This document shows, in pieces, positions 11,559 to 36,822 of a stretch of DNA of 40,219 bases. The notes beneath the pieces are model-generated. The model was not told the origin of the DNA. It ran no database searches and saw only the letters and a program-made list of their open reading frames with translations. The translations under genes were made by a program, and so were the position numbers. Position 1 is the stretch's first letter. Every line of letters starts with the position of its first letter. Source of the stretch: an uncultured archaeon (lineage in GTDB: Archaea > Altiarchaeota > Altiarchaeia > IMC4 > QMZM01); NCBI GenBank assembly GCA_964549685.1, contig CAZJVE010000010.1, forward strand, positions 1 through 40,219. Direction: 5' to 3'.

Positions 11559-13247
11559 TTACTTTTTATCAGGACCGGTCATTTTTGGTGCAGCAGGCTT
11601 TGGCTTTTCTCCCTTGGATTTCTGCCTCCTGCGGAAGAGGTAATACCCTGCAACGACAACGGCCAGGCCTATACCTATAGTCATCAGATTGCTGCCCCCT
11701 ATGCCCTGGGAAACCTCGAGCGTCATAGTCTTGCTGTAGATCAGGACATCATCATCCTTCGTGCAGCGAATCTCTATTGGAACTATATGTGGCTGTGCTG
11801 CTGCATTGTCTTCGACCCTGTATGCTATGGATGCAATTCCAGTTTCCCCTCCACCAATATCTCCAAGATATGCCGACTTGTCATCAAACTCGAAGGGCTG
11901 GTCCCTCTTCTCCAGCACAATCAGGGTTACCCCCTCACACTTGCTGCCGACATTGCTGACGGTTATCTGGGCAAGACCCTTCTGGGATGGCTGTGTTGAT
12001 GAGGCATCTACAGAAATCTCGAAGCGCGGGTGCTTCAATATGTCCAGAGTGTATGTTATTTCGTCATGGGCGGGCTGGCTGTTCACCTCATAGTCGAGGG
12101 CAAAGGTGATGTTGGTCTGCTGTGGTTCTATGTCTTCCTCAACATCGGCATAGAAGGTAAAACTCATTGAGCCACTGCCCTTGATTGTCCCTACCTCCTT
12201 GGTCTGTATGTAGCTGCGGGCATTCTTTAACGGATAGGTCGGCTGGAAAGTGACCTTCACATTCTTTATTTGCTCAGTGCCCTGGTTCTCTACATTGCCT
12301 GTAAATTCCACGTCTTCATCATCGCTGTGGATTTCTGCAGGGTCTGTTTCAAAGCCAGTTATGGTAAGCTTGCGGTCACCAACAACCTTAAACCCGATGT
12401 AGAATACGTCAGTATGCTCAGTGCCGCTGTTGTCTTTGTATTCAGTGGTTAGAGGTATAGTATAGGCTTTAGATTCAACATCTTCATCAACATGGAATAC
12501 CCCTTCAACAACGCCAGTGCCACCGGCAGGAATATCTCCTATTCTCTTCTTGGTTATGCCGATTACACTGAAAACAGAATAGAGTTCTGCATTAATGGCT
12601 GTGTTTTCCACTGACCCATCAAGCGGCATGCCAAGATACGCGCTTATATCCAGAGCGTCGCTTTCCCCTGTGTTTTCAAAGGTCAGTCTGACCGTGACGT
12701 CATCTCCAGCATTCAACTCATCCCTGTCCGAAAAATAATCGACGAGTTCAAGCAGGCTCCCGCTGGTTACCTCCACAGGAATAATCCAGTTGCTTGTCTC
12801 CTCCTCTATTTTCAGGTCGCCGCTGCTGTCGTAGCGGCTCTCGTCATAGGTCAGGTACAATGTGAGGTAGTGAGTCCCTACCCTCGCATCGTCATAAACC
12901 TTGATGTAGGTCGCTATGCGGGCGCTTGCTCCGGGATTTATCGCCCCAAGGAACCATCTGCCTCCCGAGTTTATACCACCTCCACTGGGAACCTTCGTCG
13001 ATATATCGTCCGTGGTGGGTATATTGGCGCTTACTTCTCTGGCCGGCAAACCACCAGTGTTGGTTATCACAATGTACAGGGGCTCTATGTCGCCGGGCTC
13101 CAGGCCGGATGGCACTATGGTCTCGTCGTAGTCTATAACCAGCGCAGTCGGCGTCTCCGTCTGCGCAGCGTTAAACGTTGCAGCAATGAGAATAGTAAAA
13201 AGCACCATCCCCAAAATCCTTGTTCTTCCGTATGTTTTGTTTTTCAT
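11559..13247 (-). CDS. COG1361 S-layer-like, Ig-fold repeat membrane-anchored protein
   Basis: Signal peptide, repeated 'l.pGd...l.l.N.G...A' Ig units, C-terminal TM and basic tail. Co-oriented with the RND pair. Confidence 0.8.
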   Translation of the reverse strand: MKNKTYGRTRILGMVLFTILIAATFNAAQTETPTALVIDYDETIVPSGLEPGDIEPLYIVITNTGGLPAREVSANIPTTDDISTKVPSGGGINSGGRWFLGAINPGASARIATYIKVYDDARVGTHYLTLYLTYDESRYDSSGDLKIEEETSNWIIPVEVTSGSLLELVDYFSDRDELNAGDDVTVRLTFENTGESDALDISAYLGMPLDGSVENTAINAELYSVFSVIGITKKRIGDIPAGGTGVVEGVFHVDEDVESKAYTIPLTTEYKDNSGTEHTDVFYIGFKVVGDRKLTITGFETDPAEIHSDDEDVEFTGNVENQGTEQIKNVKVTFQPTYPLKNARSYIQTKEVGTIKGSGSMSFTFYADVEEDIEPQQTNITFALDYEVNSQPAHDEITYTLDILKHPRFEISVDASSTQPSQKGLAQITVSNVGSKCEGVTLIVLEKRDQPFEFDDKSAYLGDIGGGETGIASIAYRVEDNAAAQPHIVPIEIRCTKDDDVLIYSKTMTLEVSQGIGGSNLMTIGIGLAVVVAGYYLFRRRQKSKGEKPKPAAPKMTGPDKK

Positions 13248-19549: not shown

Positions 19550-20490
19550 TGGCAACCAAAGCATCAGCGCCAGGGAAGGTAATCCTTCTCGGCGAACATG
19601 CAGCAGTCTACGGAAACCCCGTCCTTGTAGCCACGGTCAACCTCAGAACCTATGTAACCGTCAGCAAAAGGGACGACGATAAATTTACTTTAAACAACAA
19701 CGCTACCCAGATAGAGAATCTGGAATTCACTCTTTCTGACATCCCAAAGCTGAAAAAGGAGTGGGGCACCCTCCTTACTGCAGAGTGTCTGGAGAAGACC
19801 TTCGCAAAGATTGGCAAGCATTCCGGCCTAGACATCCGGGTTACTTCCGAAGCCCCCGTCTCTTCCGGGCTTGGGAGCTCTGCCTCTGCTGCAGCGGCAA
19901 TGGTACTGGCAATCTCTAAGGAATTCGGCCACGAACTCAGCATGGAGGAGATAGCGAACCTCGCCTGGGACATCGAGAACATTGTCCATGGCAAGTCCTC
20001 GGGAGTCGACCCCTTCTCCGTAACCTTCGGCGGAGTTCTCAGGTATCAGAAAGGAAAGTTCAAGAAGCTGAAGGTGAAGAAGTATCCAAAGATTACGATA
20101 GGCAATACTGGCGTCATATCCAACACAGGGGATATCGTCATGGACGTCATGAGGGTGAAGGACGAATTCCCGAAGTTCTTCGAGAATTACCTGGAAGCAA
20201 TGGTTCACGTTGTCGACTACGGTCAGAAGTTCCTTGAGAAAGGCGACATCAAGAAGCTGGGCAGCATAATGAACGTCAACCATGGCCTGCTGTATTCAAT
20301 AGGCGTTTCCTCTCCGGAGCTGGACAGAATTGTCTGGGCGGCAAGGGAGAACTCCATAGGCTCAAAGCTTTGCGGCGCAGGAAGAGGCGGGATAATGATT
20401 GCCCTCGGCGATGCCAGCAGGCAGATTGAAGAAGCCGGCGGCTCTGTTGTCAAGACGGAAATCTGCGATGAGGGAGTCAGGGTCGAGTAG
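19549..20490 (+). CDS. mvk: Mevalonate kinase
   Basis: APGKVILLGEHAAVYG, P..SGLGSSA, HGKSSGVD, KLCGAGRGG. Confidence 0.93.
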   Translation: MATKASAPGKVILLGEHAAVYGNPVLVATVNLRTYVTVSKRDDDKFTLNNNATQIENLEFTLSDIPKLKKEWGTLLTAECLEKTFAKIGKHSGLDIRVTSEAPVSSGLGSSASAAAAMVLAISKEFGHELSMEEIANLAWDIENIVHGKSSGVDPFSVTFGGVLRYQKGKFKKLKVKKYPKITIGNTGVISNTGDIVMDVMRVKDEFPKFFENYLEAMVHVVDYGQKFLEKGDIKKLGSIMNVNHGLLYSIGVSSPELDRIVWAARENSIGSKLCGAGRGGIMIALGDASRQIEEAGGSVVKTEICDEGVRVE

Positions 20491-20494
20491 TTAT

Positions 20495-21412
20495 TTATTT
20501 TTTTACGCATTCATTTCCTTCATCCAGAATATTTAATAGAAAACTCCCCATTTCAGTTATAGACCATTTGGGATTTCTATTATTACCTTCGTTTCTGATC
20601 AGATTTTTTTTCTTAAGGCGAACAAAATACTCTCGTCTAAATCTCGATCTTATTTTGCCGAATTCCTTTTTTCTTTCTTTTTCCCTTTTTCCACGTAATT
20701 CATCAATCGCTTTCCTATCTTGATCATCACATATATTGTCTTTGGCTAAGGAATATATTATATTTTCTTGAGTGGTGCCTGCAGGATATTCGTCAATAAT
20801 TTTCAATGTAGATATGAATTTATCCTCAAGCGGTTTAATGTCAAAATTCTTGAGTTCTTTTATGGTTCCACTTTCGGGCCTCAAACCAATACTCAGAGGT
20901 GGATATTTTTTATGATCACTGGCCCCATCATTATAATCACAAATTCCATTTTTAGAGTTATAGAAACTGCAGTCCCTACCATATTTTTCTTCTGAATATT
21001 TTTCAGGTCGCACATAATAGGGAGTCCCCCCATACATCAAACACGCTAAAGTGCCTGCAACCGCAGATATTTTACTTCCTGTAGAGATATTTACATAAAC
21101 ATCATTTTTATCAACTTCTATTTCTTTCCTAATCAAAAAACACATTTTAGACATCATAGTTTGCAAATCAAAAAAATCTTCCTTAGAACCAACAGATATA
21201 GGATCTACTTTTGGGACTCTTGTTTCTAGTATTTTCCTAGCCTCTTGTAAACAATGATGGGCTCTCTTTTCCTTTCTTTCCAAAACTTCATCGTGTGTTA
21301 GTAGGTATACCAAATCTGCAGCTCCGTTTTCTTCTAAAAAAATTGGCTCTGTGACTCTTTCTATATCGTATCCAATAGGGACTATATGTACCTTCTTTTT
21401 AACAATCTTCAT
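20495..21412 (-). CDS. DUF6293/HFX_2341-type regulator: CARF-like Rossmann domain plus C-terminal winged HTH
   Basis: VHIVPIGYDIERV..P, VYLL, VYVNISTGSKI...GTLAC, PYYV.PEKY; wHTH end L.KKNLI..G....W.ITEMG. Confidence 0.8.
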   Translation of the reverse strand: MKIVKKKVHIVPIGYDIERVTEPIFLEENGAADLVYLLTHDEVLERKEKRAHHCLQEARKILETRVPKVDPISVGSKEDFFDLQTMMSKMCFLIRKEIEVDKNDVYVNISTGSKISAVAGTLACLMYGGTPYYVRPEKYSEEKYGRDCSFYNSKNGICDYNDGASDHKKYPPLSIGLRPESGTIKELKNFDIKPLEDKFISTLKIIDEYPAGTTQENIIYSLAKDNICDDQDRKAIDELRGKREKERKKEFGKIRSRFRREYFVRLKKKNLIRNEGNNRNPKWSITEMGSFLLNILDEGNECVKK

Positions 21413-21413
21413 T

Positions 21414-21441
21414 TTGTCGTTATTGTCGTATTTGTCGACAA
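21414..21441. promoter_or_regulatory. Three phased TTGTCG repeats ending in the palindrome TTGTCGACAA
   Basis: ttgtcgt-ta-ttgtcgt-at-ttgtcgacaa directly upstream of the regulator start. Confidence 0.5.
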
Positions 21442-21496
21442 GATAGTATATATTGATTGATTTCGAGTTATGATGTTGATTGAGTTCAGTCTATAG

Positions 21497-21519
21497 ATGT
21501 CAATTTCACTTATTGACAT
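21497..21519. promoter_or_regulatory. Inverted repeat ATGTCAAT-N7-ATTGACAT, candidate operator
   Basis: Perfect 8-bp arms between the divergent regulator and nuclease genes. Confidence 0.6.
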
Positions 21520-21545
21520 GATATTAGACAAAGAACTATAAATAC

Positions 21546-21836
21546 GTGGTAAAAATGAAATATGTAGTAAGAAAGGTACAAAGGATTTTGGACGGAGACA
21601 CCTTTATGGTGAAAAAAAAGATTTTAGGAAGCCAGTATGTACGGCTTGCTAATGTGAACACCCCTGAAAAGGGGAAACGAGGGTGGGAAAGAGCGATGCA
21701 TATCTTAAGGGGGATGATTGGGGGGAGGGAGGTAGTCATAATACCTGTTTCCAATGATAGATATGGACGAGTTGTTGCTGAGGTTATCAGACGAGGGACA
21801 AACATAAATAAAAGAATGCGAGCATTAGGGTACTGA
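21546..21836 (+). CDS. Minimal thermonuclease (staphylococcal nuclease OB-fold), no signal peptide
   Basis: V.RILDGDTF, VRLANVNTPE, DRYGRVVAEV, IN..M...GY. The C-terminal helix is absent. Confidence 0.85.
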   Translation: MVKMKYVVRKVQRILDGDTFMVKKKILGSQYVRLANVNTPEKGKRGWERAMHILRGMIGGREVVIIPVSNDRYGRVVAEVIRRGTNINKRMRALGY

Positions 21837-21837
21837 G

Positions 21838-22038
21838 GTGATAAAAATGGTAAACTCCCTTAAGATATTTGGGATTGGGGCAGCAGTAGGTACCTTAGGT
21901 ATTCTAGCTCTGCTCCTGATAGCGTTGCTGTCTATAGGCGAATCTGGATTTGCATTGATGGTTCTCCTATTAATTGGAGTCTTTGTCGTAGGAGGAGCAA
22001 TTGCTCTGGTGCTGAGAAGCGGCAGATACATATTTTGA
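21838..22038 (+). CDS. 66-aa two-TM membrane protein
   Basis: SD GAGGTG upstream, 1 nt after the nuclease stop, two hydrophobic helices. Confidence 0.7.
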   Translation: MIKMVNSLKIFGIGAAVGTLGILALLLIALLSIGESGFALMVLLLIGVFVVGGAIALVLRSGRYIF

Positions 22039-22052
22039 CAGGAAATAGGATA

Positions 22053-22187
22053 ATGGCGAATATAGATATAGGCACTGGATTTGGAGTGATAACGTTGGCT
22101 TTGTTCCTCTCTTGGATGGGAGATAAGACAAAGAAAGCTGCTTTGGTGCTTTTATTGGGTTTAGCTTTGGTGCTTTTACTACAATAA
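22053..22187 (+). CDS. 44-aa two-TM micro-protein not in the ORF track
   Basis: Hand translation MANIDIGTGFGVITLALFLSWMGDKTKKAALVLLLGLALVLLLQ*. AGGA upstream. Confidence 0.55.
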   Translation: MANIDIGTGFGVITLALFLSWMGDKTKKAALVLLLGLALVLLLQ

Positions 22188-22240
22188 GGTAAAGTATGTG
22201 AAAGGAATGCCGTATATCAATATATTGTTAGGGTTAATGC

Positions 22241-26459: not shown

Positions 26460-28007
26460 ATGAAGAGGCTGACCCTCTATCTGCTGATAGCCTTGGCACT
26501 GCTTTCTGTTGCCGTGTGCCTCAGGGAGCCGGGAATTCAGGATGATTCATCTCAGGTTGTTGCTGCAGCAACAAGTCCCCAATGGCCTCAATTCGGCTAT
26601 GACATTGCCAATGCTGCACAAAGCCCGTACACGGGGCCGCAGACGAATACATTAAAGTGGGATTTTCAACTTAATGGCTGGGGGAATTCGGCGGTTATAG
26701 ATGCGAACGGGACAGCGTATGTAGGTACGAACAGGGGCACTCTTTATGCGATAAACACGGACGGTTCTGAGAAGTGGAGCTTCCAATTGTCAGCTATAGA
26801 TGATGTTACGGGCCTAGACGACCAGGCCTACGGCACCATTAGCGGCCTCGCTTTGGGTTCGGACGGGACAATTTATCTTGGGCGGTCGCTTGGGCAAACC
26901 CAAGAAACCCAAAACACTCAAAATCAGAGACATCTGTATGCCTTCAATCCCGGCGGCAGCCAAGAATGGAACTTTTCAGTTGGAACTGGGGATATCACCA
27001 CCAACATTAAGGTTGCTTCAGATGGCACAATCTATTTTGGCACCCTGAAAGGGTTTAACGGGGGCAATACAACCCTTTATGCTGTAAATCCTGACGGCAC
27101 AGAGAAATGGTCAACCCTGCTCAGCCAGTCAGCAAGGATTTCATCCCCCGCTATTGCCAGTAACGGTACGATTTATGTGGGAAGTGAGAAATTTGTAGCG
27201 CTGACTCCCCAGGACGGTTCTGTGGAATGGGAATATAATATCCAGACTCCAACAGGGACAACCTTTGCTCCAGCCGTGGCAAGCGATGGAACGATATATG
27301 CTGCAGTGGCACAATGGGCGGATAATGACAGCAATAAAATCTTTGCCCTCAATCCAGATGGTACTAAAAAATGGGAACTAAGCGTAGGGACAATAGAAAC
27401 ATCCCCTGCCATCGCCTCGGATGGGACCATTTATGTTACCTCCTGGGTTGCGGCTGACTCTGACCCGGCCGTAAATACCGGCCTAACGGCCATCAGTCCC
27501 CAGGGCAGTGTAACATGGTCCTACGGACTTAATACAACCTATCCAGATTACCCCAGCATTTATGTGGGATGCGATTCTTCTCCCATTATTGGGGCTGACG
27601 GTATCATCTATTTTGGGTCAGACGCAGACAATATCTATGCCGTCAATCCTGATGGTACAACAAAATGGATTTTTACTGAAGGGGAATGTGGAGTAGACAC
27701 TTGTCTCTCAGAGTTTGACAATTCCCCTGCTATAGATGCAGAAGGTACATTGTATATCTGCCATGCCGGCGGTCCGGGAGCGAATGATACACATAGATGC
27801 TATGCGATAGGTGATGGTGGAGGGACGACGACCACTACAACGTCCACGACCACTATCTCAGATGAATGCGAGATAACTGGCGATTTCTATCCGTGCGACG
27901 GAGAGGTGAGTCTGGCGGAGGTTGTGGACATAGTCAGCAACTGGCTGAGCGGTCTCGCAGAGCTTGAGGAAGTGATAGAAGCGATAAATAACTGGGTAGG
28001 GGGCTGA
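26460..28007 (+). CDS. Secreted PQQ-like beta-propeller protein with Thr linker and C-terminal dockerin-like module
   Basis: Signal peptide; WPQFG; repeats SPAIASDGTIY..LYA.NPDG..KW; TTTTTTSTTT; ECEITGD..PCDGEVSLAEVVD. Confidence 0.88.
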   Translation: MKRLTLYLLIALALLSVAVCLREPGIQDDSSQVVAAATSPQWPQFGYDIANAAQSPYTGPQTNTLKWDFQLNGWGNSAVIDANGTAYVGTNRGTLYAINTDGSEKWSFQLSAIDDVTGLDDQAYGTISGLALGSDGTIYLGRSLGQTQETQNTQNQRHLYAFNPGGSQEWNFSVGTGDITTNIKVASDGTIYFGTLKGFNGGNTTLYAVNPDGTEKWSTLLSQSARISSPAIASNGTIYVGSEKFVALTPQDGSVEWEYNIQTPTGTTFAPAVASDGTIYAAVAQWADNDSNKIFALNPDGTKKWELSVGTIETSPAIASDGTIYVTSWVAADSDPAVNTGLTAISPQGSVTWSYGLNTTYPDYPSIYVGCDSSPIIGADGIIYFGSDADNIYAVNPDGTTKWIFTEGECGVDTCLSEFDNSPAIDAEGTLYICHAGGPGANDTHRCYAIGDGGGTTTTTTSTTTISDECEITGDFYPCDGEVSLAEVVDIVSNWLSGLAELEEVIEAINNWVGG

Positions 28008-29333
28008 CTATCTTGCAATGCCGCCCAGCCTGGAGAAGAATTCATTTATCACGGCTGATGTTTCCTTGGGGTTCCTGTTCAGAATCTCGACCCCGAAGCA
28101 GATGCTCTTCTTTCCGGGGCCTATCTGGCTTCCGGTATAGACGTCCTTTATCTCGACCCCGATTATGTCTCTGTCATAGCTCCGGAGGAGCTTTGCGATG
28201 AATCTTCCATTGATGCTGTCGTCGAAGGCAAATGAAAAGTCCCTCTTCACGGTGCCGAATTTCTTGGCCAGGGATTCGACTACCTCATCGTCGGGAAGAA
28301 TCTGGATATTCGATATTTTCAATTTCGATTCCTTTCCTGAATCCTCGATTATGACCTCCTCAGGCGTTACGTCTTTTACTGTGCCGTAGTGAATCTTCCC
28401 CGAGTAGATGTGTTTCAGGCATATCCCGCTGCCGATGGAGTTCTTGAGGCAGTCCAGTTCTGAGATTAGAGAGTATATGGCCTTGTCAGAGCGCCCCATT
28501 GCAGACTCCACATCACCGAAGTGCTTCGCGGCCCGGGACATTGTGGCTATGAACTTCTTCTCGTCCCCGTCCTTTACTGTCTCGTTCAGTTCCTTTGCGG
28601 CCTTGAGGAAGGCATCATGTACTTCCAGAACGCGGGGGTTCTGCATCTGTATCGATGCATATAGCTCGGGGTTCTGGCCGATGATTCTGCCGACTATGTC
28701 CAGCATCAGTTCATAGATTGGCGAGGAGAACTTCCTGGACTCCTTGACATCGAGGTCCAGTTCCTCTAGCGTCTTTCCTATGGAGATGTATGCGAAGTGG
28801 GTGAGGCCCTGAACGACCGCCATTATCCGGTCATGTTCCTCAGGGGTGGATTCGTAGATTCTTGCCTTGTGCCTGCTGAGGAATTCTTTAAACCAAGTGA
28901 GCCATGTCTTGCCTCTAACCGGAGTGAGCACGAAGACCTGCCCTTCTAGTGTTCCGACCCTGTGGCTGAAGACTGGATGTGTTCCAAGAATCTCAACTCC
29001 TTTGTTGCAGAATTCCTTCATTGCCTTGCAGGGCTCCTCCTTTATGGAAGTGACATCCATGAGGAGAGCGCCCTTCTTTACTGTGGGGGCGACCTCCTTG
29101 ATGACATCGAGTGTGTGGTCGATGGGTACGGAAATCATGACTATGTCAGCGCCTTTTGCGGCCTTCTTGTTGTCCTTGACGTATTCGGCTCCCAACTCCT
29201 TGGCCACGTTTTTTCCCTTAATCTCGCTTGGCCCGGAGATTGTTACAGAAAAACCCTCCTCCTTGAACAGTTTTGCGAAGAAAGCGCCCATGCCGCCGTA
29301 GCCACCCATAATTGAAATCTTTTTCTTAGCCAT
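28008..29333 (-). CDS. tyrA: Prephenate dehydrogenase with C-terminal beta-barrel and FDX-ACB-like domains
   Basis: GGYGGMG, DVTSIK, THPVF, EEHDRIMAVVQGLTHF; C-terminal KRDFSF..DVYTG..I.PGKKSICF. Confidence 0.9.
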   Translation of the reverse strand: MAKKKISIMGGYGGMGAFFAKLFKEEGFSVTISGPSEIKGKNVAKELGAEYVKDNKKAAKGADIVMISVPIDHTLDVIKEVAPTVKKGALLMDVTSIKEEPCKAMKEFCNKGVEILGTHPVFSHRVGTLEGQVFVLTPVRGKTWLTWFKEFLSRHKARIYESTPEEHDRIMAVVQGLTHFAYISIGKTLEELDLDVKESRKFSSPIYELMLDIVGRIIGQNPELYASIQMQNPRVLEVHDAFLKAAKELNETVKDGDEKKFIATMSRAAKHFGDVESAMGRSDKAIYSLISELDCLKNSIGSGICLKHIYSGKIHYGTVKDVTPEEVIIEDSGKESKLKISNIQILPDDEVVESLAKKFGTVKRDFSFAFDDSINGRFIAKLLRSYDRDIIGVEIKDVYTGSQIGPGKKSICFGVEILNRNPKETSAVINEFFSRLGGIAR

Positions 29334-29407
29334 GCATTATAAATTAAAAGAATAGATTATTTAAGGCATCGGTAGGCAATTTTATCTTCTTAAACTAAAT
29401 ACATAAG

Positions 29408-30352
29408 ATGGATTTTTCGAGGTTTGATAATCATTTTGGAGAGGTCGACTCGGAGATTGAAAGGCTCCTCAGCGGGGAGCCGGAAAAACTCTACAGGGCC
29501 GCGAGGCATATAACCTTTGCAGGGGGGAAGAGAATAAGGCCATTGCTCTGCATGCTTTCGTGCGAGGCATTAAACTGCGATAAGAAAAATGCAGTAAAAA
29601 CCGGCGCTGCAATAGAGATGATACATACCTTTACTCTCGTTCATGACGACATAATGGACAGGGACCACATCAGGAGGGGCGTTCCCTCCGTTCATGAGGA
29701 ATTCGGCGAAACGACCGCAATTCTGGCTGGAGACTTGCTCTTTTCCAAGGTTTTTGAAGTGAGTGACACCAGAGCGGTGGGAATTCTCGCCCATGCCGCG
29801 GCAGAGATATGCGAGGGGCAGGAAATGGACATGGAATTCGAGGAAAGAGAAGATGTCTCAGAATCCGAGTACCTGAAGATGATAGGGAAGAAGACCGCCG
29901 TGTTACTGGAGGCTGCCACGAAAGCGGGGGCGATTCTTGGCAATGGAGATGAGGGGCAGGTTTCGTCTCTTGCAAAATTCGGGCGTTCTCTCGGGATGGC
30001 CTTCCAGATTCACGACGACATCCTTGGAGTTACAGCAGATGAGGAAAAGCTAGGAAAACCAGTGGGTAGCGACATAGTGGAGGGCAAGAAGAATCTCGTG
30101 ATGATAAAGGCAAAGGAGCTTTTGGCCGGCGATGAGGCAGAGGAATTCACTGGAATTCTCGGCAGTGGTAAGGAGTCGCAAATCCAAAGGGGTATCGAGC
30201 TGATAAAGAATTCCGGCGCTCTGGAATACTGCATGGAGAAGGAGAAGGGCTTTATGGATGATGCAATAAATTCACTGAAGGATTTGCCTGATACAGATGC
30301 AAAGAAAAGCCTTCTTGAGATAGCAGACTTTGTAATAAGGAGGGATTCATAA
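29408..30352 (+). CDS. idsA: Short-chain polyprenyl (GGPP) synthase
   Basis: GGKRIRP, FTLVHDDIMD..RRG, GQEMD, KTA, FQIHDDILG, GKPVGSD. Confidence 0.93.
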   Translation: MDFSRFDNHFGEVDSEIERLLSGEPEKLYRAARHITFAGGKRIRPLLCMLSCEALNCDKKNAVKTGAAIEMIHTFTLVHDDIMDRDHIRRGVPSVHEEFGETTAILAGDLLFSKVFEVSDTRAVGILAHAAAEICEGQEMDMEFEEREDVSESEYLKMIGKKTAVLLEAATKAGAILGNGDEGQVSSLAKFGRSLGMAFQIHDDILGVTADEEKLGKPVGSDIVEGKKNLVMIKAKELLAGDEAEEFTGILGSGKESQIQRGIELIKNSGALEYCMEKEKGFMDDAINSLKDLPDTDAKKSLLEIADFVIRRDS

Positions 30353-31200
30353 TGAAGGCCGTAATTCCAGCAGCAGGACGGGGAACAAGATTCCTGCCCG
30401 CAACAAAGGCGCAGCCCAAGGAGATGCTCCCCTTGATAGACAAACCGGTAATCCAGTTTGTTGTCGAGGAGGCAGTAGCATCGGGAATAGATGATATCCT
30501 GATAATTACTGGAAGGGGGAAGAGGGCCATCGAGGACCACTTCGACAAGTCCTTCGAGTTGGAGAATATCCTAGAAAGGGATGGAAAGACTGACACTCTG
30601 AAGGAGGTGAGGGACATCTCAGATTTGGCTGACATTCATTACATCAGGCAGAGGGAGCCGAAGGGACTCGGTAATGCAATCTACTATGCAAAGAAGCACG
30701 TGGGCGATGAACCCTTTGTGGTTCTTCTTGGAGACGATATCATCTCCTCTGATGTTCCTTGCACGAAACAGCTGATTGAATACTATGAGAAGTACAAGGC
30801 CCCGATAATTGCCGTCAACAAGGTTGAAAAGGAGACGATAGAGAGCTACGGCGTTGTTGACGGGGAGCTCGTGGAGGACCGGGTCTATAAAGTCAAGGAC
30901 CTCGTGGAAAAGCCGAAGCCGGAGGATGCGCCCTCGAATCTTGGCATAACAGGGAGATATCTTCTTACTCCAGACATCTTCGACGCCATAGATAAGACGA
31001 AACCGGGGAAGGGAGGCGAAATCCAGCTTACTGATGCATTAAAAATCCTCAGCCAGGAGAGGGATATGTATGCATACGACTTTGAGGGCGTGAGGTATGA
31101 CCTCGGCAACAAGGCTGACTACATAAAGGCCACCATAGAATACGCCCTCAGGAGAGACGAGTTCAATGGCTGGCTGAAAGAATATCTGAAGGGCCTGTGA
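30352..31200 (+). CDS. galU: UTP--glucose-1-phosphate uridylyltransferase
   Basis: AVIPAAG.GTRFLPATKAQPKEMLP, EDHFD, LVEKP, GEIQLTDA. Confidence 0.95.
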   Translation: MKAVIPAAGRGTRFLPATKAQPKEMLPLIDKPVIQFVVEEAVASGIDDILIITGRGKRAIEDHFDKSFELENILERDGKTDTLKEVRDISDLADIHYIRQREPKGLGNAIYYAKKHVGDEPFVVLLGDDIISSDVPCTKQLIEYYEKYKAPIIAVNKVEKETIESYGVVDGELVEDRVYKVKDLVEKPKPEDAPSNLGITGRYLLTPDIFDAIDKTKPGKGGEIQLTDALKILSQERDMYAYDFEGVRYDLGNKADYIKATIEYALRRDEFNGWLKEYLKGL

Positions 31201-31222
31201 CTGGTAGTTGAAGAGCCCGTGA

Positions 31223-31921
31223 TTAGTAGTGCTCCTGCGGTTTGTTGAGAAATCCAAGAATATCAGGTACTTCTTTGATTATATCATAAATCTGCTTGAA
31301 TTCGTTCAAACCAAAGCTGTCGAGCTCTCTGGGTGCCAGTTTTCTGAGTTCGGGAAGGTTTTCGTAGTTCTTATTTCCTATGAACCTGCCGTCGGTAAGC
31401 TCGAAGTAAGCCCCGCCTTTCTTCTCGATAATCGGGCCGTAGTTTGATTCAAACTCCGTGCTAACGAAGTTCGCCATCCTCAGCTCCTGGCTGGATGGGT
31501 TTATCGCTATGTGGCAGTAGTTCGGCGGTATTACAACCTTGTCGCCCTTCTCCGCCCTTACTATGATGACCTCGTCTTCCTTCTGGAGGAGGTAGTGGGC
31601 CTCGCCTTCCAGTACCTCATAGAGCTCAGGATAGGGGAGCGAATTCGCAGGGACCGGGGGATGGCAATGGCCCTTGGTCTTTACGAACTCTTTACCGAGA
31701 TTCATCGGGGGGATTATAGTTATGTCGTATCTGATTTTCTCCTTCTTCATGGCTTCCCTGTCCTCGTCGCTGAGGGCAAGGTCCCGGTACATGTAGTAGA
31801 GCTCGAATTCCCCGGGACTCTGAACGGAATCTAACCATTCCCTGTCATAGATGACATCAAGCATGTCGCTGAGCCTCCTGATGTTGGGTTTAAGAGCATG
31901 GCCTCCAAAGCTGAATTCCAT
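31223..31921 (-). CDS. pgiA: Cupin-type (archaeal) glucose-6-phosphate isomerase family
   Basis: LYYMYRD, RYDIT.I, E.VKTKGH.H, YPELYEV..G, IPPNY.H..IN, G.AY. Confidence 0.85.
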   Translation of the reverse strand: MEFSFGGHALKPNIRRLSDMLDVIYDREWLDSVQSPGEFELYYMYRDLALSDEDREAMKKEKIRYDITIIPPMNLGKEFVKTKGHCHPPVPANSLPYPELYEVLEGEAHYLLQKEDEVIIVRAEKGDKVVIPPNYCHIAINPSSQELRMANFVSTEFESNYGPIIEKKGGAYFELTDGRFIGNKNYENLPELRKLAPRELDSFGLNEFKQIYDIIKEVPDILGFLNKPQEHY

Positions 31922-31982
31922 ATTGATTAAGAATAGGAACTAGAGCATAAAGAATTTATACCAGAAGCCCACAGTTATAATT

Positions 31983-32267
31983 ATGAAAGGCGAGGATGTT
32001 TTCATATTTATGGCCTCATCGGCTGGCATATGGGTCATGCTGGAGTTCCTCACCTTCGTTAGTTATGGGGGTCTCTTTCTGATGACTGAGGTAACATTGC
32101 CCATATCCATTGGCGCCTCAGTACAGATAACCATGCTCTGGCTGGCCCAGCACATGCCAAGCAAGGACGAGAACCTCAAGCTGAGGAGGGACCTTAGAAT
32201 GGTGAAGCTCAACATCCTGAACGCGAATTACAGCAGGTTCAACCCTTATCCGCACTTCTTTTCATGA
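31983..32267 (+). CDS. Hypothetical small membrane protein
   Basis: TTTATA box at 31955-31960, two hydrophobic segments, host-like codons. Confidence 0.55.
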   Translation: MKGEDVFIFMASSAGIWVMLEFLTFVSYGGLFLMTEVTLPISIGASVQITMLWLAQHMPSKDENLKLRRDLRMVKLNILNANYSRFNPYPHFFS

Positions 32268-32853
32268 TTCCAGTCAAGGTCTCCTCTTCGATGTCCAGGT
32301 CGAATTCCTTCTTCATTTCAGACCTCAGTTCCCCGGCACTCATCTCCGGGTTTTTCTTGAGAATTCTTCCTGCCAGATTCGAAAGGTCCTCGTTCAGGTT
32401 CCATGGGAGGATAATCCATTTCCACTCCTGTCTGTCCTCGGCATAGAAATCAGGAGTGAATTCAGATTGTGATTTATGGAGAAGGGTCGCAGTCTTAATC
32501 TCGGCGGGTTTTAATTCCTTGAGATGATTGATGGATACTTTGATGCTATCTCCTGTGTCTGTGAGGTCGTCGACGAGGAGGACTCTCTTGTCCTCTATGC
32601 TACCATGAAGCGGAACCTTCAACTCCGACCTCCCGGACTTTGTTGCTGTTATGCCCCAGTGCTCCACCTTGAGGGCAATGAGGTCCTTTATTCCCAAGAG
32701 GTCGGAAAGATTCATGGCAGGGACCAGGCCGCCCCTTATTATCGCGATTATGATGTCTGGTTTGAAACCGGATTTCTTCATCTTTTCCGCAACGATTTCC
32801 GAGAGCTCCCTTGCATAATCCCATGATATGAGCTCGCACTTGAATTCCTCCAT
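32239..32853 (-). CDS. Purine phosphoribosyltransferase (hypoxanthine/xanthine-guanine type)
   Basis: SW.., PD.IIAI.RGGLVPA..LSD, PRPP loop VLLVDDLTDTG, WIILPW. Confidence 0.88.
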   Translation of the reverse strand: MEEFKCELISWDYARELSEIVAEKMKKSGFKPDIIIAIIRGGLVPAMNLSDLLGIKDLIALKVEHWGITATKSGRSELKVPLHGSIEDKRVLLVDDLTDTGDSIKVSINHLKELKPAEIKTATLLHKSQSEFTPDFYAEDRQEWKWIILPWNLNEDLSNLAGRILKKNPEMSAGELRSEMKKEFDLDIEEETLTGIMKRSADKG

Positions 32854-32885
32854 GATTAATATTTGTATTTCAATAGTTTAATGAA

Positions 32886-33584
32886 ATGGCCATCGGCATA
32901 ATCGGCGGTACATCCCTATTCGGCACGGAATTCTTCAAGGGCTTCAAGGAGGGGTGGGTTGAAACGGAGCACGGCAAGGCCTACCTCCTGACAAGTGACG
33001 GGGCAGTCTTTATACCCAGGCACGGCAAGGACAAAAAGATTCCCCCGCACAGGATAAACCACAGAGCGAACATCAAAGCCCTGGAGATGAGAGGCATCAG
33101 GAAGGTGCTCGGGATAAATTCAGTCGGCAGCCTTAAGAAGGAGTTGAAGCCGGGCTCGCTTGTGGTTCCTGACGACTATATCGCTCTCTGCAATATCCCG
33201 ACCTTCCACGACGAGGAGATTGTGCACATCACCCCGGCCCTGGATGAAGGGCTGAGGCAGGAGATAACAAAGGTTGCAAAAGAGATGAGCATCAAGATAA
33301 TACCCGAGGGAATCTATTTCCAGTCAGCGGGGCCAAGGCTTGAGACCAAAGCAGAGGTCAGGTTCATGGCTAACTTTGCAGACCTTGTAGGTATGAGCCT
33401 CGCCTCTGAAGCAACGCTTGCTCAGGAGCTGGGGATTGCCTATGCGAGCATCTGCTCGGTCGATAACTATGCCAATGGCATTGTTGATGGGGAGCTGGAC
33501 TTCGAAAAGGTAGTTGAAGAGGCGTCCAAGAACAGGGTGGATTTGAAGAGATTGCTGCTAAGGTTAATTGAAGAGCTGAAATGA
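32886..33584 (+). CDS. MTAP-family nucleoside phosphorylase, probably 6-oxopurine / methylthioinosine-specific
   Basis: IGIIGGT, PRHG....PPH.IN.RANI, GPRLETKAE, VGMS; DNYA in place of the MTA-specific TDYD. Confidence 0.85.
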   Translation: MAIGIIGGTSLFGTEFFKGFKEGWVETEHGKAYLLTSDGAVFIPRHGKDKKIPPHRINHRANIKALEMRGIRKVLGINSVGSLKKELKPGSLVVPDDYIALCNIPTFHDEEIVHITPALDEGLRQEITKVAKEMSIKIIPEGIYFQSAGPRLETKAEVRFMANFADLVGMSLASEATLAQELGIAYASICSVDNYANGIVDGELDFEKVVEEASKNRVDLKRLLLRLIEELK

Positions 33585-35032
33585 AAGAGAGAATTATATT
33601 TATTGGAATTCTAATGCTTTCCGTTTCTGCCAGCGGATATTCGCACTTTGCGTTCATGCCCGCTGAGGGAGCATACGAGGAGTCTGCGGCCATTGGAGTC
33701 TACTGGAGCAGGCCGCACCCCGGACCCTTCATATGGGGCTATGTTGAGACAAGCGAGGGAGTCTATAATTGGACTGTGACTGATGAATACGTCATGGAGT
33801 CCCAGAGCTACGGCTTTGACCTTCTAGTCACCATCTGGCCCTTTGCCGATTGGGACCAGCAGAGCTGCCATTCCTACAGCGAATGCCAGGGGGAGGGCTT
33901 CGAGCCCAATCCACAGGAAGACGACCCGGGCATTCCGATGTGGAGGTGCATGCCCTGCAATCTAACAGCGTATGAGAATTTCGTAAAGGCCATGGTGGAG
34001 AGGTATGACTACGACGGCGTGAACGACATGGAGAACCTGAGCAGGAGGATAGAGTTCTGGGAGGCCTCGAACGAGCCATCCATGCAGGGGGAGGGGCTGA
34101 TATTCTTCACAGGTACTTCGCAGGACTATCTCGACCTGCTGAATTCCACCTACCGGGCGGTTAAGGAATCTGATATCAATGCCTCTGTCCTGCACGCCGG
34201 GATGGCTGGTTTGTCGACTTATGATATGGATGTCAGGGACTTCTGGGACCCCATCTACAGCAGGGCCTCGGAGTTCTTTGACGTTGCAAATATTCATTCC
34301 ATAGGCACCGGAGGGGAGCACCTCTGGATTCCTGAGATGTGGGAATTCATGCAGGACCATGGCGTAAATAAAACCCTTTGGGTTACTGAAGTACAATACA
34401 GCAGCGAGGGTATCGGGAGAGAAGAGGGCAGCGTCACGGACGACGAATGGGCCCAGGCCATCGTCAGGAGCTTTGTCTATGCCCTGGGCAACGGGGCCAA
34501 CCGGCTCTTCTATGTCGCTCTCCAGGGCAATCCCGGAGAGGATGGTCCGGAGCTGATGGAGAAGGATAAGACCAAGAAGCCGGCCTATAATGCATTCGGA
34601 ACGATGGTGGAGCAGATTGACTACTTCGAAAGCGCCGTTAAGTTTGATAACGGCACCTACAGGTTCATGGTCGGGGGCAGTCAGGTAGCTGCTCTCTGGG
34701 GCTCTGGGGGAATTCCCGCCAGCCTGAATCTGACAGGGAACGTGACCGTTACAGGTATCAACGGAAGCGAACAGATCATGGATGCCTCGGTGGTCTCCCT
34801 TACAGACAGCCCTGTCTTCGTAAGTCAGGGGGCGGTTACCACAACCACGACAACAAGCAGCACGACAACGAGTAGCACAACGACTATCACAGGGGAATGC
34901 GAGCTTATGGGGGACAGCCAGCCGTGCGGGGACGTAACCCTGGCAGAGGTAGTCGACCTCATAGGTCTCTGGGGAAATGAACAGGCATCTCTGGACGATG
35001 TGATTGACCTTATCACGGCATGGGCCTCTTGA
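33581..35032 (+). CDS. Secreted clan GH-A glycoside hydrolase-like protein with Thr linker and C-terminal dockerin-like module
   Basis: Signal peptide; W..VE...G.YNW..D; acid/base WEASNEP; nucleophile WVTE; KPAY; TTTTTTSSTTT; ECELMGDSQPCGDVTLAEVVD. Confidence 0.85.
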   Translation: MKERIIFIGILMLSVSASGYSHFAFMPAEGAYEESAAIGVYWSRPHPGPFIWGYVETSEGVYNWTVTDEYVMESQSYGFDLLVTIWPFADWDQQSCHSYSECQGEGFEPNPQEDDPGIPMWRCMPCNLTAYENFVKAMVERYDYDGVNDMENLSRRIEFWEASNEPSMQGEGLIFFTGTSQDYLDLLNSTYRAVKESDINASVLHAGMAGLSTYDMDVRDFWDPIYSRASEFFDVANIHSIGTGGEHLWIPEMWEFMQDHGVNKTLWVTEVQYSSEGIGREEGSVTDDEWAQAIVRSFVYALGNGANRLFYVALQGNPGEDGPELMEKDKTKKPAYNAFGTMVEQIDYFESAVKFDNGTYRFMVGGSQVAALWGSGGIPASLNLTGNVTVTGINGSEQIMDASVVSLTDSPVFVSQGAVTTTTTTSSTTTSSTTTITGECELMGDSQPCGDVTLAEVVDLIGLWGNEQASLDDVIDLITAWAS

Positions 35033-36351: not shown

Positions 36352-36822
36352 ATGAAACCGCTGAAGAGCATCCTGTCAAGAGTGAGGTGGAATGTCGTCC
36401 TGGGAATCATAGCAGCGATTCTGATTGTTGCGCTGTTTGCAGTCGTGCTGGTAACAATGAAGCCGCTGGATTCCGGCCTGAAGTGCAAGAAAGACATATG
36501 CATCAGCTCCAGAGCCGACCCGGGCACCATCAACCTAAGAGATGAGAGTACCATCTGGGTCGAGGTCAAGAACAGCGGTCCCGATGAGCTGAGGATTGAT
36601 GTAAATCTCGAGACCTACGACCCGAAACTGACATTCATAAGCAACAGCAACCAGACGGTCTATAAGGAGATTAGAATCGGGCCGGGTGAGAGCAGGAAGC
36701 TCGATTTCCCAGCAAGAATCAACGCCATGTACGGGGGCGACTACAGAATAGATGTGACGGTCTCCTATTCTTATGGCCAAATAGAGGACAAGGTGACTCT
36801 GAACGTGAGGGATCAGATTTAG
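36352..36822 (+). CDS. Membrane-anchored Ig-like (CARDB-like) hypothetical protein
   Basis: N-terminal TM; P..I.....STI.VEVKN.G..IGPGESR..F..GDYRI.V. Confidence 0.7.
   Translation: MKPLKSILSRVRWNVVLGIIAAILIVALFAVVLVTMKPLDSGLKCKKDICISSRADPGTINLRDESTIWVEVKNSGPDELRIDVNLETYDPKLTFISNSNQTVYKEIRIGPGESRKLDFPARINAMYGGDYRIDVTVSYSYGQIEDKVTLNVRDQI

Follow-up and report, generated by a model that had tools for sequence, protein, structure and literature searches.

Two proteins encoded in the window, i.e., the 40,219-nucleotide stretch of an Altiarchaeota genome (contig CAZJVE010000010.1) to which all positions below refer, have unrelated bodies and nevertheless end in similar tails, and this shared tail is a genuine protein family, of about 46–50 residues, that has no counterpart in Pfam or NCBIfam and is new to both. 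The module is rather likely to be a generic protein-protein docking tag, derived from dockerin, that binds a genome-specific partner shared at the surface. The module would probably have arisen from dockerin as two tandem 17-residue loop-helix (F-hand) units. Thr-rich and probably glycosylated linkers join it to the C-termini of varied Sec-exported proteins, and it would hold the tagged proteins on a common cell-surface partner, as dockerin does.

The first gene (26460..28007, + strand, an ORF of 515 aa) encodes a secreted PQQ/BamB-like beta-propeller, the body of which matches the PQQ_2/BamB-like propeller of Pfam with an E value of 6.3e-19. A signal-peptide-like hydrophobic segment was detected by Kyte-Doolittle analysis at residues 1–26 (26460..26537, +), and a Thr/Ser-rich linker, TTTTTTSTTT, was read from the translation at 27825..27854 (+). 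Module copy 1, delimited from its first Cys to its last Trp by comparison of the tails and by translation (CEITGDFYPCDG...INNW), lies at 27867..27995 (+) and consists of a Cys-stapled loop, helix 1, a degenerate second loop and helix 2. The second gene (33581..35032, +, an ORF of 483 aa) encodes a secreted GH-clan-A-like protein, with a signal-peptide-like N-terminal segment (33581..33649, +) in which residues 5–23 are hydrophobic by the Kyte-Doolittle scale, a Thr/Ser-rich linker, TTTTTTSSTTTSSTTT, at 34838..34885 (+, from the translation) and module copy 2, CELMGDSQPCGD...ITAW, at 34898..35023 (+), delimited like copy 1 and scoring 84.7–91.2 bits against the family profiles. Both ORFs and tails are as the preliminary description of this DNA gave them, with identical translations. 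Its observation that a Thr linker is followed by nearly the same module in both proteins was confirmed by a single BLASTP comparison of the 68-residue tails (23/47 identities, 49%; E 2e-13), a likeness far beyond chance. It was also correct in that neither protein has a transmembrane anchor, since the hydropathy scan revealed no second transmembrane segment in either of them, the N-terminal signal-like segment being the only hydrophobic one.

The body of the second protein has no Pfam match. Its neighbours in the ESM Atlas are clusters of the GH5/GH39/GH42 type (score 0.91, a lead only), and about one third of its homologues, among the best 120 of the 169 found, carry a precomputed PF02449 match. 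Of these 120 homologues, 118 stop where the linker of the window protein starts, and the module is present only in the two that are most similar to it, at 80% and 58% identity. This points to a tag that was joined to a pre-existing body.

An HMM built from the two tails found 23 copies of the module in 22 ORFs of the 1.17-Mb genome, which is 85% complete. In 19 of the 23 the copy ends no more than five residues from the end of the ORF; one of the other four opens a tandem pair, and three are internal, lying between Thr linkers and followed by 88 to 606 residues. Of the 22 proteins, 17 have a signal-like segment when read from the first ATG, two when read from a GTG or from an ATG further on, and two more across a frameshift or N-gap, while the contig ends within the remaining one. 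Among the cargoes are S8 and C25 peptidases, NosD/beta-helix, LamG, FG-GAP, PKD, LTD and cupredoxin domains and further families, as well as 23 CarboxypepD_reg repeats. A profile search of a library of 1.84 billion proteins returned 781 cluster representatives at E<=1e-3, of which 297 also reach E<=1e-10; among the best 150 matches the module lies within ten residues of the C-terminus in 137 and is non-terminal in 13. Tandem doubles, two residues apart, are common among the library and genome copies. All carriers found come from four genera of one Altiarchaeota family, with 6–27 copies per genome. The many tagged secreted proteins expected in the preliminary description were thus found, albeit with the three internal copies the position is not strictly C-terminal. 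Likewise, the module is not confined to the two window genes, its positions are not random, its carriers have signal-like segments and are not cytoplasmic proteins, and it does not match an already characterised Pfam or NCBIfam family, any of which would have spoken against that description.

Another feature of the family is the uniformity of the copies within a genome. In genome G000, 24 of 25 copies are of subtype A (LxEV[IV]D...LxDVID), and in two further genomes of the same genus all copies inspected are of subtype B (DFELL...DFDLL), i.e., 16 of 16 fetched from the 17 of G001 and 6 of 6 in G002, so that the subtype changes between genomes of one genus; in these two the subtype was called by reading the sequences by eye where the motif pattern failed. 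Since the copies within a genome are only 25–58% identical and yet share one subtype, recent gene conversion is unlikely, and selection by something common to the copies is indicated. One subtype per genome suggests a shared partner.

The preference for the C-terminus also bears on a different explanation, namely that the tail is a sorting or export signal, possibly cleaved, that is read by a lineage-specific machinery which carries Sec-exported proteins across the outer envelope or fixes them to it, comparable to those of the T9SS C-terminal domain or of sortase/archaeosortase; we regard this as unlikely. Altiarchaeota have been reported to possess two membranes. The position of the module in 137 of the best 150 library matches and in 19 of the 23 genome copies, its restriction to signal-peptide proteins, and a subtype that varies by genome, as co-evolution with a sorting machine would produce, are all consistent with such a signal. 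In addition, no PGF-CTERM signal above the cut-off and no exosortase-family protein were detected in the 85%-complete genome, and therefore another anchoring route is needed; the exosortase negative is weak, since the model used was positive in only one of 14 control genomes. However, a sorting signal accounts poorly for the three internal copies, for the 13 non-terminal library matches and for the common tandem doubles; the module has no hydrophobic or transmembrane segment, and a well-folded acidic two-helix domain with calcium-loop ancestry is unlike known sorting signals. No candidate machinery was found either. As for the archaeosortase type in particular, the tails have no hydrophobic segment, and the best PGF-CTERM match of the genome (13.7 bits, below the cut-off) is located elsewhere.

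The internal duplication claimed for the module is evident in 209 gap-free copies, where segments of 15 residues, compared with those 17 residues further on, show 48% identity, versus 3–11% at the nine other offsets between 10 and 19. The first loop is of the canonical DxDxDG.V...E form in 70 of 269 copies and of a Cys type in 182, the latter including both window copies, neither of which is canonical. Because paralogues carry the canonical DxDxDGxVxxxE, the C-x3-GD-x2-PC motif of the window copies can be recognised as a derived calcium loop, in which Pro and Cys occupy the calcium-ligand positions 3 and 5. The loop Cys probably pairs with another Cys about nine residues upstream, as a disulfide or as a metal staple; given the presumably anaerobic life of the organism, a disulfide outside the cell is the less certain. 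Both cysteines are present in 211 of the 243 copies with enough N-terminal coverage, neither in 22, the upstream one only in nine and the loop one only in one; these copies are related, so the counts do not translate into a probability. Glu at loop position 12 (267/269) and the two Trp residues (266/269 and 262/269) are almost universal; an invariant Trp closes each helix, and the helix positions are nearly all conserved between copies on unrelated cargoes. In all copies position 3 of the second loop is an invariant Trp and position 5 varies; this loop is never a calcium loop, retaining only Gly6, a hydrophobic position 8 and an acidic position 12.

These features also allow the module to be viewed as a metal-dependent cap that merely stabilises or solubilises the C-terminus, or as a binder of a non-protein ligand such as calcium, another metal, a glycan or a mineral surface, which we consider quite improbable. 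The canonical calcium loop in 70 of the 269 copies and the very acidic composition seen in the alignments would suit it, and so would the fact that no partner was found. On the other hand, 182 copies have lost the ligand positions 3 and 5, and neither the conservation of the helices across unrelated cargoes nor the switch of subtype from genome to genome is easily explained by stability alone. Moreover, long flexible linkers separate module and cargo, so the module cannot cap the fold of the cargo.

The AlphaFold2 model of 27846..28004 (pLDDT 90.3) consists of two antiparallel helices, residues 23–34 and 40–52, with no helix entering the loop. When this model was compared with 48,161 chains, dockerins filled places 1, 2, 7, 14, 16, 18, 46 and 48 among the 50 chains listed, with 6kg9 at Z 3.8 (rmsd 3.2 for 47 residues), 2ozn_B at Z 3.8 and 2vn5_B at Z 3.3 (rmsd 2.3 for 44); all structural Z values are below 4, and unrelated helical hairpins score as high; Foldseek gave no match at E<=0.001. 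At the sequence level, the weak Pfam match seen most often is EF-hand_1, in 6 of the 23 copies (E 5.5e-4 at best), and a profile search of the PDB retrieved EF-hand proteins (E 1.1e-4 at best) together with a single chain that bears a dockerin, 5n5p_B (E 0.026). The module shares with the EF-hand (PF00036) the 12-residue DxDxDGxVxxxE loop and its exit helix; in contrast, it is extracellular, has no entering helix, in most copies lacks ligand positions 3 and 5, and falls under the Pfam cut-off. It was not assigned to the EF-hand family, given that 70 of the 269 copies show the loop consensus, no helix precedes the loop, and the single whole-protein match to EF-hand_1 scores 17.5 bits, below the cut-off of 25.4.

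Positional homology to a dockerin is seen in a giant protein (L012) of the window genome, which has a cohesin followed by the module at its C-terminus. This region aligns with a protein of a relative that has a cohesin followed by Dockerin_1 (44.1 bits), with 33% identity over 178 residues (E 8e-16). The alignment continues across the junction and so brings the first loop-helix of the module into register with that dockerin's first F-hand. When the profile of the family was compared with that of 20 canonical dockerins from Altiarchaeota, the match was weak (23 columns, P 0.0055, probability 6.7%). Canonical type I dockerins, which in Altiarchaeota relatives also stand next to cohesins, and the module have in common a duplicated F-hand logic, a first loop of the GDxNGDGxV type (in a quarter of the module copies), a C-terminal position after a linker on secreted enzymes, and the presence of cohesins in some of the same genomes; the module differs in being about 17–20 residues shorter, without a linker helix and without a Pfam match. 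Dockerin proper (PF00404) was rejected as an assignment. With the Pfam Dockerin_1 model (cut-off 22.9 bits) the window tails gave no match at E<=1 and the 23 copies none at E<=10, the sole Dockerin_1-like stretch of the genome (21 bits) being a domain of its own that follows the module in L001; likewise, two calcium loops are not found, since 70 of the 269 copies have a canonical first loop and none has a canonical second one. From the features of PF00404 the module retains the internal loop-helix duplication, with a period of 17 residues and not 22, and the location at the C-terminal end of linker-joined secreted proteins. One recent report names the dockerin repeat segments as 22-residue (PMC12270676).

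A closer parallel in size is offered by natural truncated dockerins. According to the same report, on the group 2 dockerins of Ruminococcus flavefaciens (RfDoc2), single-repeat dockerins of about 40 residues bind cohesin tightly, two per cohesin, and in the RfDoc2 complex the two lie antiparallel, side by side (PMC12270676, J Biol Chem 2025). As described there, RfDoc2 (PDB 9GVB) and the module are both about 40–50 residues long and have a calcium-type loop, a helix, a loop and a helix, and a protein of the RfDoc2 group also has a cohesin-like module. Unlike RfDoc2, compared by its description, the module is archaeal, its helix 2 is a true duplicate of helix 1, both helices finish with the invariant Trp, and most of its copies exchange the calcium ligands for a Cys pair. 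The Gly-Arg cohesin-recognition pair described for RfDoc2 at loop positions 10 and 11 is not present in the module, where L (152/269) or D (98/269) stands at position 10 and F, S or A at position 11; this pair, which in the RfDoc2 type goes with homology to group 4 dockerins, thus does not support placing the module there.

The side-by-side arrangement in the RfDoc2 complex is also what would be expected if copies of the module paired with each other, in trans or in tandem, into a four-helix double F-hand that forms dimers or a mesh and needs no receptor. The recurrent natural doubles and the homogeneity of subtype within a genome, which mutual recognition would select, argue in the same direction. 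EF-hand-type units normally act in pairs. Against this, the module is already internally duplicated and is modelled with confidence as a lone hairpin, and we give self-association a small chance of being correct.

If, as we favour, the module docks onto a shared partner, cohesins are candidates to consider. The search for cohesin-like partners proposed in the preliminary description did yield three Pfam cohesins in the window genome, versus 23–25 modules, but all three are within module-bearing proteins (L001, L012 and L015) that have no membrane anchor. A Pfam cohesin was found in five of the nine other module-bearing genomes; none was detected in G007, which is 97% complete and has 26–27 modules. 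Cohesins together with canonical dockerins occur in two genomes of the family that lack the module, and the canonical dockerins of this lineage could be the true partners of the cohesins. Being so few and so unevenly distributed, cohesins cannot be the general partner, and that they serve as the partner in some genomes is doubtful; a receptor that is not recognised at present, or another copy of the module, is more likely. The analogy with the cellulosome remains conjectural, given the unanchored cohesins of the window genome and the module-rich relative without a detectable one. From the original proposal of a compact, lineage-specific docking tag, the dockerin/F-hand-like character, the restricted distribution and the mostly C-terminal location after Thr linkers on many unrelated signal-peptide proteins have held up, while no scaffold or S-layer receptor was found and dockerin proper did not pass the Pfam and calcium-loop comparisons.

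A more specific version of the docking hypothesis can be put forward tentatively, in which a calcium-independent, Cys-stapled mini-dockerin would have replaced the classical dockerin and would, in each genome, plug 6 to 27 different secreted enzymes and adhesins onto an envelope receptor other than a cohesin. If this were true, the tag and the receptor of a hitherto unknown archaeal display system would co-evolve fast, so that sister species of one genus differ in tag subtype, and an S-layer-like protein, the outer membrane or an appendage would be the candidate receptor. Among archaea, non-cellulosomal proteins of Archaeoglobus fulgidus carry a cohesin and a dockerin, with canonical two-loop dockerins present in few proteins. 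The two cases resemble each other in their archaeal, non-cellulolytic context and in the combination of a cohesin with a dockerin-like module in one polypeptide (here L001, L012 and L015); unlike the A. fulgidus pairs, the module described here, probably a shortened derivative, has spread to 6–27 copies in each genome that carries it.

Two genes of the window encode secreted proteins with unrelated bodies and a common C-terminal module. The first (26460-28007, plus strand, 515 aa) encodes a PQQ/BamB-like β-propeller (Pfam PQQ_2, E 6e-19), and the second (33581-35032, plus strand) a protein of 483 aa with no Pfam match; both lie among housekeeping genes, e.g., dapF, hisF and ilvC-like ORFs. Each product has a signal-peptide-like hydrophobic N-terminus and no other predicted transmembrane (TM) segment. 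Translation and comparison of the tails placed a Thr/Ser run (27825-27854 in the first gene and 34838-34885 in the second, both plus strand) before the module (27867-27995 and 34898-35023, plus strand). The two tails, whose sequences are as transcribed in the preliminary description, have 49% identity across 47 residues (E 2e-13), confirming its claim that a Thr linker and a nearly identical module end two unrelated secreted proteins. The label of GH-A protein given there to the second product is plausible, since the ESM-Atlas neighbours of its body are GH5/GH39/GH42-type clusters (score 0.91, a lead only) and many homologues of this body carry a precomputed Glyco_hydro_42 match. A total of 169 homologues of this body were found, from sources that include Thermoplasmatales, Dehalococcoidia and Hydrothermarchaeaceae, and identity is mostly 35-45% among the 120 listed. 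In 118 of these 120 the end point coincides with the start of the linker, and the module is found in only two of them, the closest ones (80% and 58% identity). As these homologues show, the module is a tag joined to ready-made bodies.

An HMM of the two tails was compared with the six-frame translation of the source genome (1.166 Mb in 27 contigs, approx. 85% complete, the window being contig C10). This search detected 23 copies in 22 ORFs, all of them above the HMMER inclusion threshold, and thus the family extends beyond the two genes; contig C6 has an ORF with a further weak copy at an internal position. Compared with 1.84 billion cluster representatives, a profile built from the 23 copies matched 781 proteins at E ≤ 1e-3, of which 297 reached E ≤ 1e-10. 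The strictly C-terminal placement that had been expected holds for most copies: 19 of the 23 stop at most five residues before the ORF end (a contig end cuts one of the 19), and no more than 10 residues separate the module from the C-terminus in 137 of the best 150 library matches. However, of the remaining copies one opens a tandem pair, and three are internal, between Thr linkers, with 88, 395 and 606 residues after them. The tagged cargoes include S8 subtilases, a C25 peptidase, NosD/β-helix, LamG, FG-GAP, PKD/TIG and LTD domains and a cupredoxin domain; a further tagged protein, longer than 3364 aa, contains 23 CarboxypepD_reg repeats. A signal-like segment is present at the first ATG in 17 of the 22 tagged proteins, and two more have one if a GTG or a later ATG is taken as the start, in agreement with the proposal that the module belongs to secreted proteins. 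In the locus L016 (C3:66845-70117) the signal peptide and the first domain lie in a different, upstream frame, indicating a frameshift that is either real or an assembly error; in the LamG-like L009 (C8:53872-55285) a run of N (an assembly gap) in the Thr linker separates the body from the module, and one of the 22 proteins is truncated by a contig end. No recurrent neighbour of the tagged genes stands out on contig C2, where housekeeping genes are interspersed. A tag so placed on exported proteins might also act as a sorting or export signal, a reading that we consider improbable; were it correct, the module would be a pointer to an unknown archaeal export or attachment machine.

The anatomy of the module was derived from 269 copies in 252 library proteins. 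The core consensus is C-x-L-x-G-D-x-P-P-C-G-x-V-x-L-x-E-V-[IV]-D-x-I-N-x-W-x-x-G-x-A-x-L-x-D-V-I-x-L-I-N-x-W; Glu is found at loop position 12 in 267 of the 269 copies, and the two Trp in 266 and 262. The first loop shows the plain DxDxDG.V...E calcium form in 33 copies, the same form with Cys at position 4 in 37, a 'PC' form in which the ligand positions 3 and 5 have become Pro and Cys in 169 (this is the form of the window copies), and other Cys forms in 13, the loop being truncated or otherwise different in 17. Where the upstream and the loop Cys were compared (n = 243), both are present in 211 copies, neither in 22 and one only in 10. Because the two residues occur jointly or not at all, the pair fits a staple, either a disulfide or a metal site, that would replace calcium. 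A cap that confers stability or holds a metal is a further reading of the module, which seems very unlikely to us. The internally duplicated helix previously reported was recovered at an offset of 17 residues, with 48% identity versus 3-11% at other offsets. The second loop retains Gly6, a hydrophobic position 8 and an acidic position 12, and its position 3 is the invariant Trp of helix 1; therefore, the second half is a degenerate F-hand that begins within the end of helix 1, without a linker helix. AlphaFold2, using 62 natural copies, predicted helices at residues 23-34 and 40-52 (pLDDT 90.3, pTM 0.70); for a natural tandem double, with a shallow alignment of 11 rows, the mean pLDDT was 64.4 and the pTM 0.38, with both loops below 50, and this model has no bearing on the packing of two copies against each other.

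The comparison with dockerins gave a divided result. None of the 23 copies matched Pfam Dockerin_1; among the NCBIfam families nothing was obtained below E 0.016, and dockerin_GC matched one of the 23 copies at E 0.13. Foldseek against the PDB gave no match at E ≤ 0.001, with the dockerin 5m2s_B appearing only at E 6.2; a second structural look, covering 43 chains, listed no dockerin, and hhalign against 20 canonical dockerins of Altiarchaeota relatives aligned the first 23 columns only (P 0.0055, probability 6.7%). Since the module does not pass the tests that define the dockerin family, we do not count it as a member. On the other hand, in a Foldseek-independent search of 48,161 chains, dockerins were found at ranks 1, 2, 7, 14, 16, 18, 46 and 48 of the best 50, but with Z values of 2.8-3.8, level with unrelated hairpins. 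A PDB profile search returned EF-hand proteins and 5n5p_B, a chain of a cohesin-dockerin complex (E 0.026). In the ESM Atlas the best neighbours of the module are nameless short-protein clusters (0.91, with recognition below the usual mark), and a named family, Dockerin_1, first appears at rank 17 (score 0.82, a lead only). Further evidence comes from the giant protein L012, at whose C-terminus a Pfam cohesin (32.8 bits) is fused directly to the module. This region is 33% identical over 178 residues (E 8e-16), spanning the junction, to a 247-aa protein of a relative in which a homologous cohesin is fused directly to a Pfam-recognised Dockerin_1 (44.1 bits). At the junction '...VTVGSVCTLLGDESPCGVVSLAEVVDYITLW' of L012 stands opposite '...VTVGA---LVGDINGDGSVSIFDLVLMGQAW' of the relative, whose canonical dockerin likewise has helices that end in Trp. 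The dockerin-rich structural ranks, the EF-hand and 5n5p_B profile matches, the junction alignment and the Trp-ended helices provide good evidence that dockerins of the lineage itself gave rise to the module by shortening.

The nearest described counterpart is found in R. flavefaciens, whose 'naturally truncated' dockerin of group 2 has approx. 40 residues arranged as calcium loop, helix, loop and helix, and binds a cohesin with high affinity in a 2:1 ratio of dockerin to cohesin (PMC12270676). Dockerin-like tags for the docking of secreted proteins are known in kind; what is new is the form, i.e., a linkerless 17-residue double F-hand, mostly Cys-stapled, archaeal, present in 6-27 copies per genome and with a genome-wise subtype. 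No description of the module was found in Pfam, NCBIfam or the literature searched, which did not extend to subscription journals.

The lineage-specific character attributed to the module was upheld. The named strong matches in a collection of 5.8 billion proteins are all Altiarchaeota, and the public loci encoding close copies, searched with a narrowed alignment of the module, are in 4/4 cases titled Candidatus Altiarchaeota, Altiarchaeia or Altiarchaeales MAGs. Of 21 further genomes that represent species of the same family, nine carry the module at E ≤ 1e-6, and the module-bearing genera are four (2/2, 4/4, 2/2 and 1/1 genomes), with 6 to 26 copies per genome; it was detected in 0/39 genomes searched from other families of the phylum, an absence that is to be read as "not found in those searched" because many of the genomes are incomplete. 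Desulfobacteraceae or Planctomycetes are the names given to three weak matches (P0246, P0248 and P0252; E 1e-5 to 2e-4). The ESM-Atlas clusters nearest to window 34877-35029 are nameless short proteins labelled Candidatus Hydrogenedentota, which are bacterial. Bacterial relatives of the module may exist, or the bacterial-named matches may be due to chance or mis-binning.

Two subtypes of the module were recognised: A, with L-x-E-V-[IV]-D ... L-x-D-V-I-D, and B, with D-F-E-L-L ... D-F-D-L-L. In the source genome 24 of 25 copies are of subtype A, the exception being the first tandem copy of L004. In two genomes of the same genus, G001 and G002, subtype B was assigned by reading the sequences, four copies being one residue off the pattern, to 16/16 copies fetched of 17 and to 6/6, respectively; only this genus was fully sampled, other genomes being covered by a biased subset. 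The giant protein, too, has subtype B in its G001 and G002 orthologues, which over the C-terminal 220 residues are otherwise 75% and 67% identical to L012. The canonical calcium loop changes along with the subtype (12/16 copies in G001 versus 7/23 in the source genome). Recent gene conversion among the copies is unlikely, because those within a genome are only 25-58% identical to each other. The joint change of a whole set of tags on unrelated proteins would be expected under selection by one common binding partner or by mutual recognition, and speaks for a shared partner. Mutual recognition would make the module a self-association unit, which we regard as unlikely. The subtype switch between sister genomes is a natural experiment on evolving tag-receptor specificity.

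Altiarchaeota are presumably anaerobic and are reported to have two membranes and hami. The mechanism proposed here starts from what was observed: N-termini that resemble Sec-type signals, long linkers rich in Thr, a compact, acidic two-helix module at the end of the protein, and many different cargoes. The tagged proteins would be exported, the Thr-rich linker would act as a glycosylated spacer, and the module would dock non-covalently on a shared envelope partner. Calcium in the canonical copies, and the Cys pair in the others, would keep the first loop rigid, and binding would take place, as it does in dockerins, through a face made up of the two Trp-capped helices. We think that the module is probably a docking tag of some kind. 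If so, it would represent a third natural answer to the dockerin design problem, at half the normal dockerin size, with a linkerless internal duplication and with most copies apparently independent of calcium. Docking would then be the chief means of surface retention for proteases, glycosidases and adhesin-like proteins in a little-known uncultivated lineage, and the module would offer a handle on the Altiarchaeota envelope receptor, while protein engineering would gain a natural affinity tag of very small size.

Cohesin is a possible, if rather doubtful, docking partner. Cohesin-dockerin proteins are present in Archaeoglobus fulgidus. As to the cohesin-like partners named in the preliminary description, the source genome has three Pfam cohesins, in L015 (42.7 bits), L012 (32.8 bits) and L001 (29 bits in the genome search); all three lie within module-bearing proteins, none of which has a membrane anchor. 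L001 (C2:84437-89740) is a secreted S8 subtilase of 1768 aa, with a cohesin at approx. aa 1315-1446 (40% identical to that of L012) followed by a Cys-rich domain, the module at aa 1629-1680, and a separate C-terminal, near-canonical two-loop dockerin with extra cysteines at aa ~1703-1748 (21 bits, just below the Pfam cut-off). Cohesin, mini-module and classical dockerin are therefore found within one polypeptide. A Pfam cohesin was detected in 5/9 other module-bearing genomes versus 2/12 module-less genomes of the family, and the latter two also carry canonical dockerins. G001 and G002 have a cohesin and no Pfam dockerin, so the modules are the sole dockerin-like elements there, a pattern that lends mild support to cohesin as the partner. 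No cohesin was found in G007, a relative that is 97% complete and has 26-27 modules, and modules are in excess everywhere (0-3 cohesins versus 6-27 modules per genome). Small proteins composed of a signal peptide, a cohesin, a Thr linker and the module occur in the large collection, e.g., P0170 (250 aa); if the module binds cohesin, such proteins would polymerise or serve as adaptors. The complex predicted for the L001 cohesin domain and the module scored 0.02 against a mark of 0.32, in a run without controls, and speaks neither for nor against binding.

A Pfam search for a receptor among 15 untagged signal-peptide proteins of the source genome, the majority of which are predicted to have a TM segment at the C-terminus, revealed no cohesin and no obvious receptor; these proteins have propellers, FG-GAP, CarboxypepD_reg, CARDB or VWA domains, or no match. 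Directly downstream of the tagged L009, L128 (C8:55320-56003) encodes a protein of 227 aa with a signal peptide, a small β-rich domain, a Ser/Thr stalk of approx. 90 residues, a C-terminal TM anchor and a KRK tail, and no Pfam match. Its product is a possible candidate for the membrane receptor.

Other features were observed in the window. A gene at 11559-13247 (minus strand) encodes a type-I membrane protein of 562 aa with a signal peptide, DUF11/CARDB/NEW3-like Ig domains, a C-terminal TM segment (residues 515-534) and a basic tail, i.e., a surface protein with a TM anchor in place of the tag; a small ORF at 36352-36822 (plus strand) shows a weak DUF11 match and a TM segment at the N-terminus. 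The G+C content is 39.7% in 20001-22000 versus approx. 50% elsewhere, and a stretch of approx. 830 bp without ORFs (21413-22240) separates a gene of the HFX_2341_N family from one for an M24 peptidase; no Rfam match was found in this stretch, which includes one 23-bp two-copy repeat (21453-21500). Regarding the relatives, the classical cohesin-dockerin pair is absent for this phylum from the literature searched. Single proteins, small or giant, of several Altiarchaeota relatives combine a canonical Dockerin_1 with a directly fused cohesin, the loci being G009:C126:9308-9856, G009:C22:177-737, G019:C76:11180-11698 and G014:C28:54177-54812.
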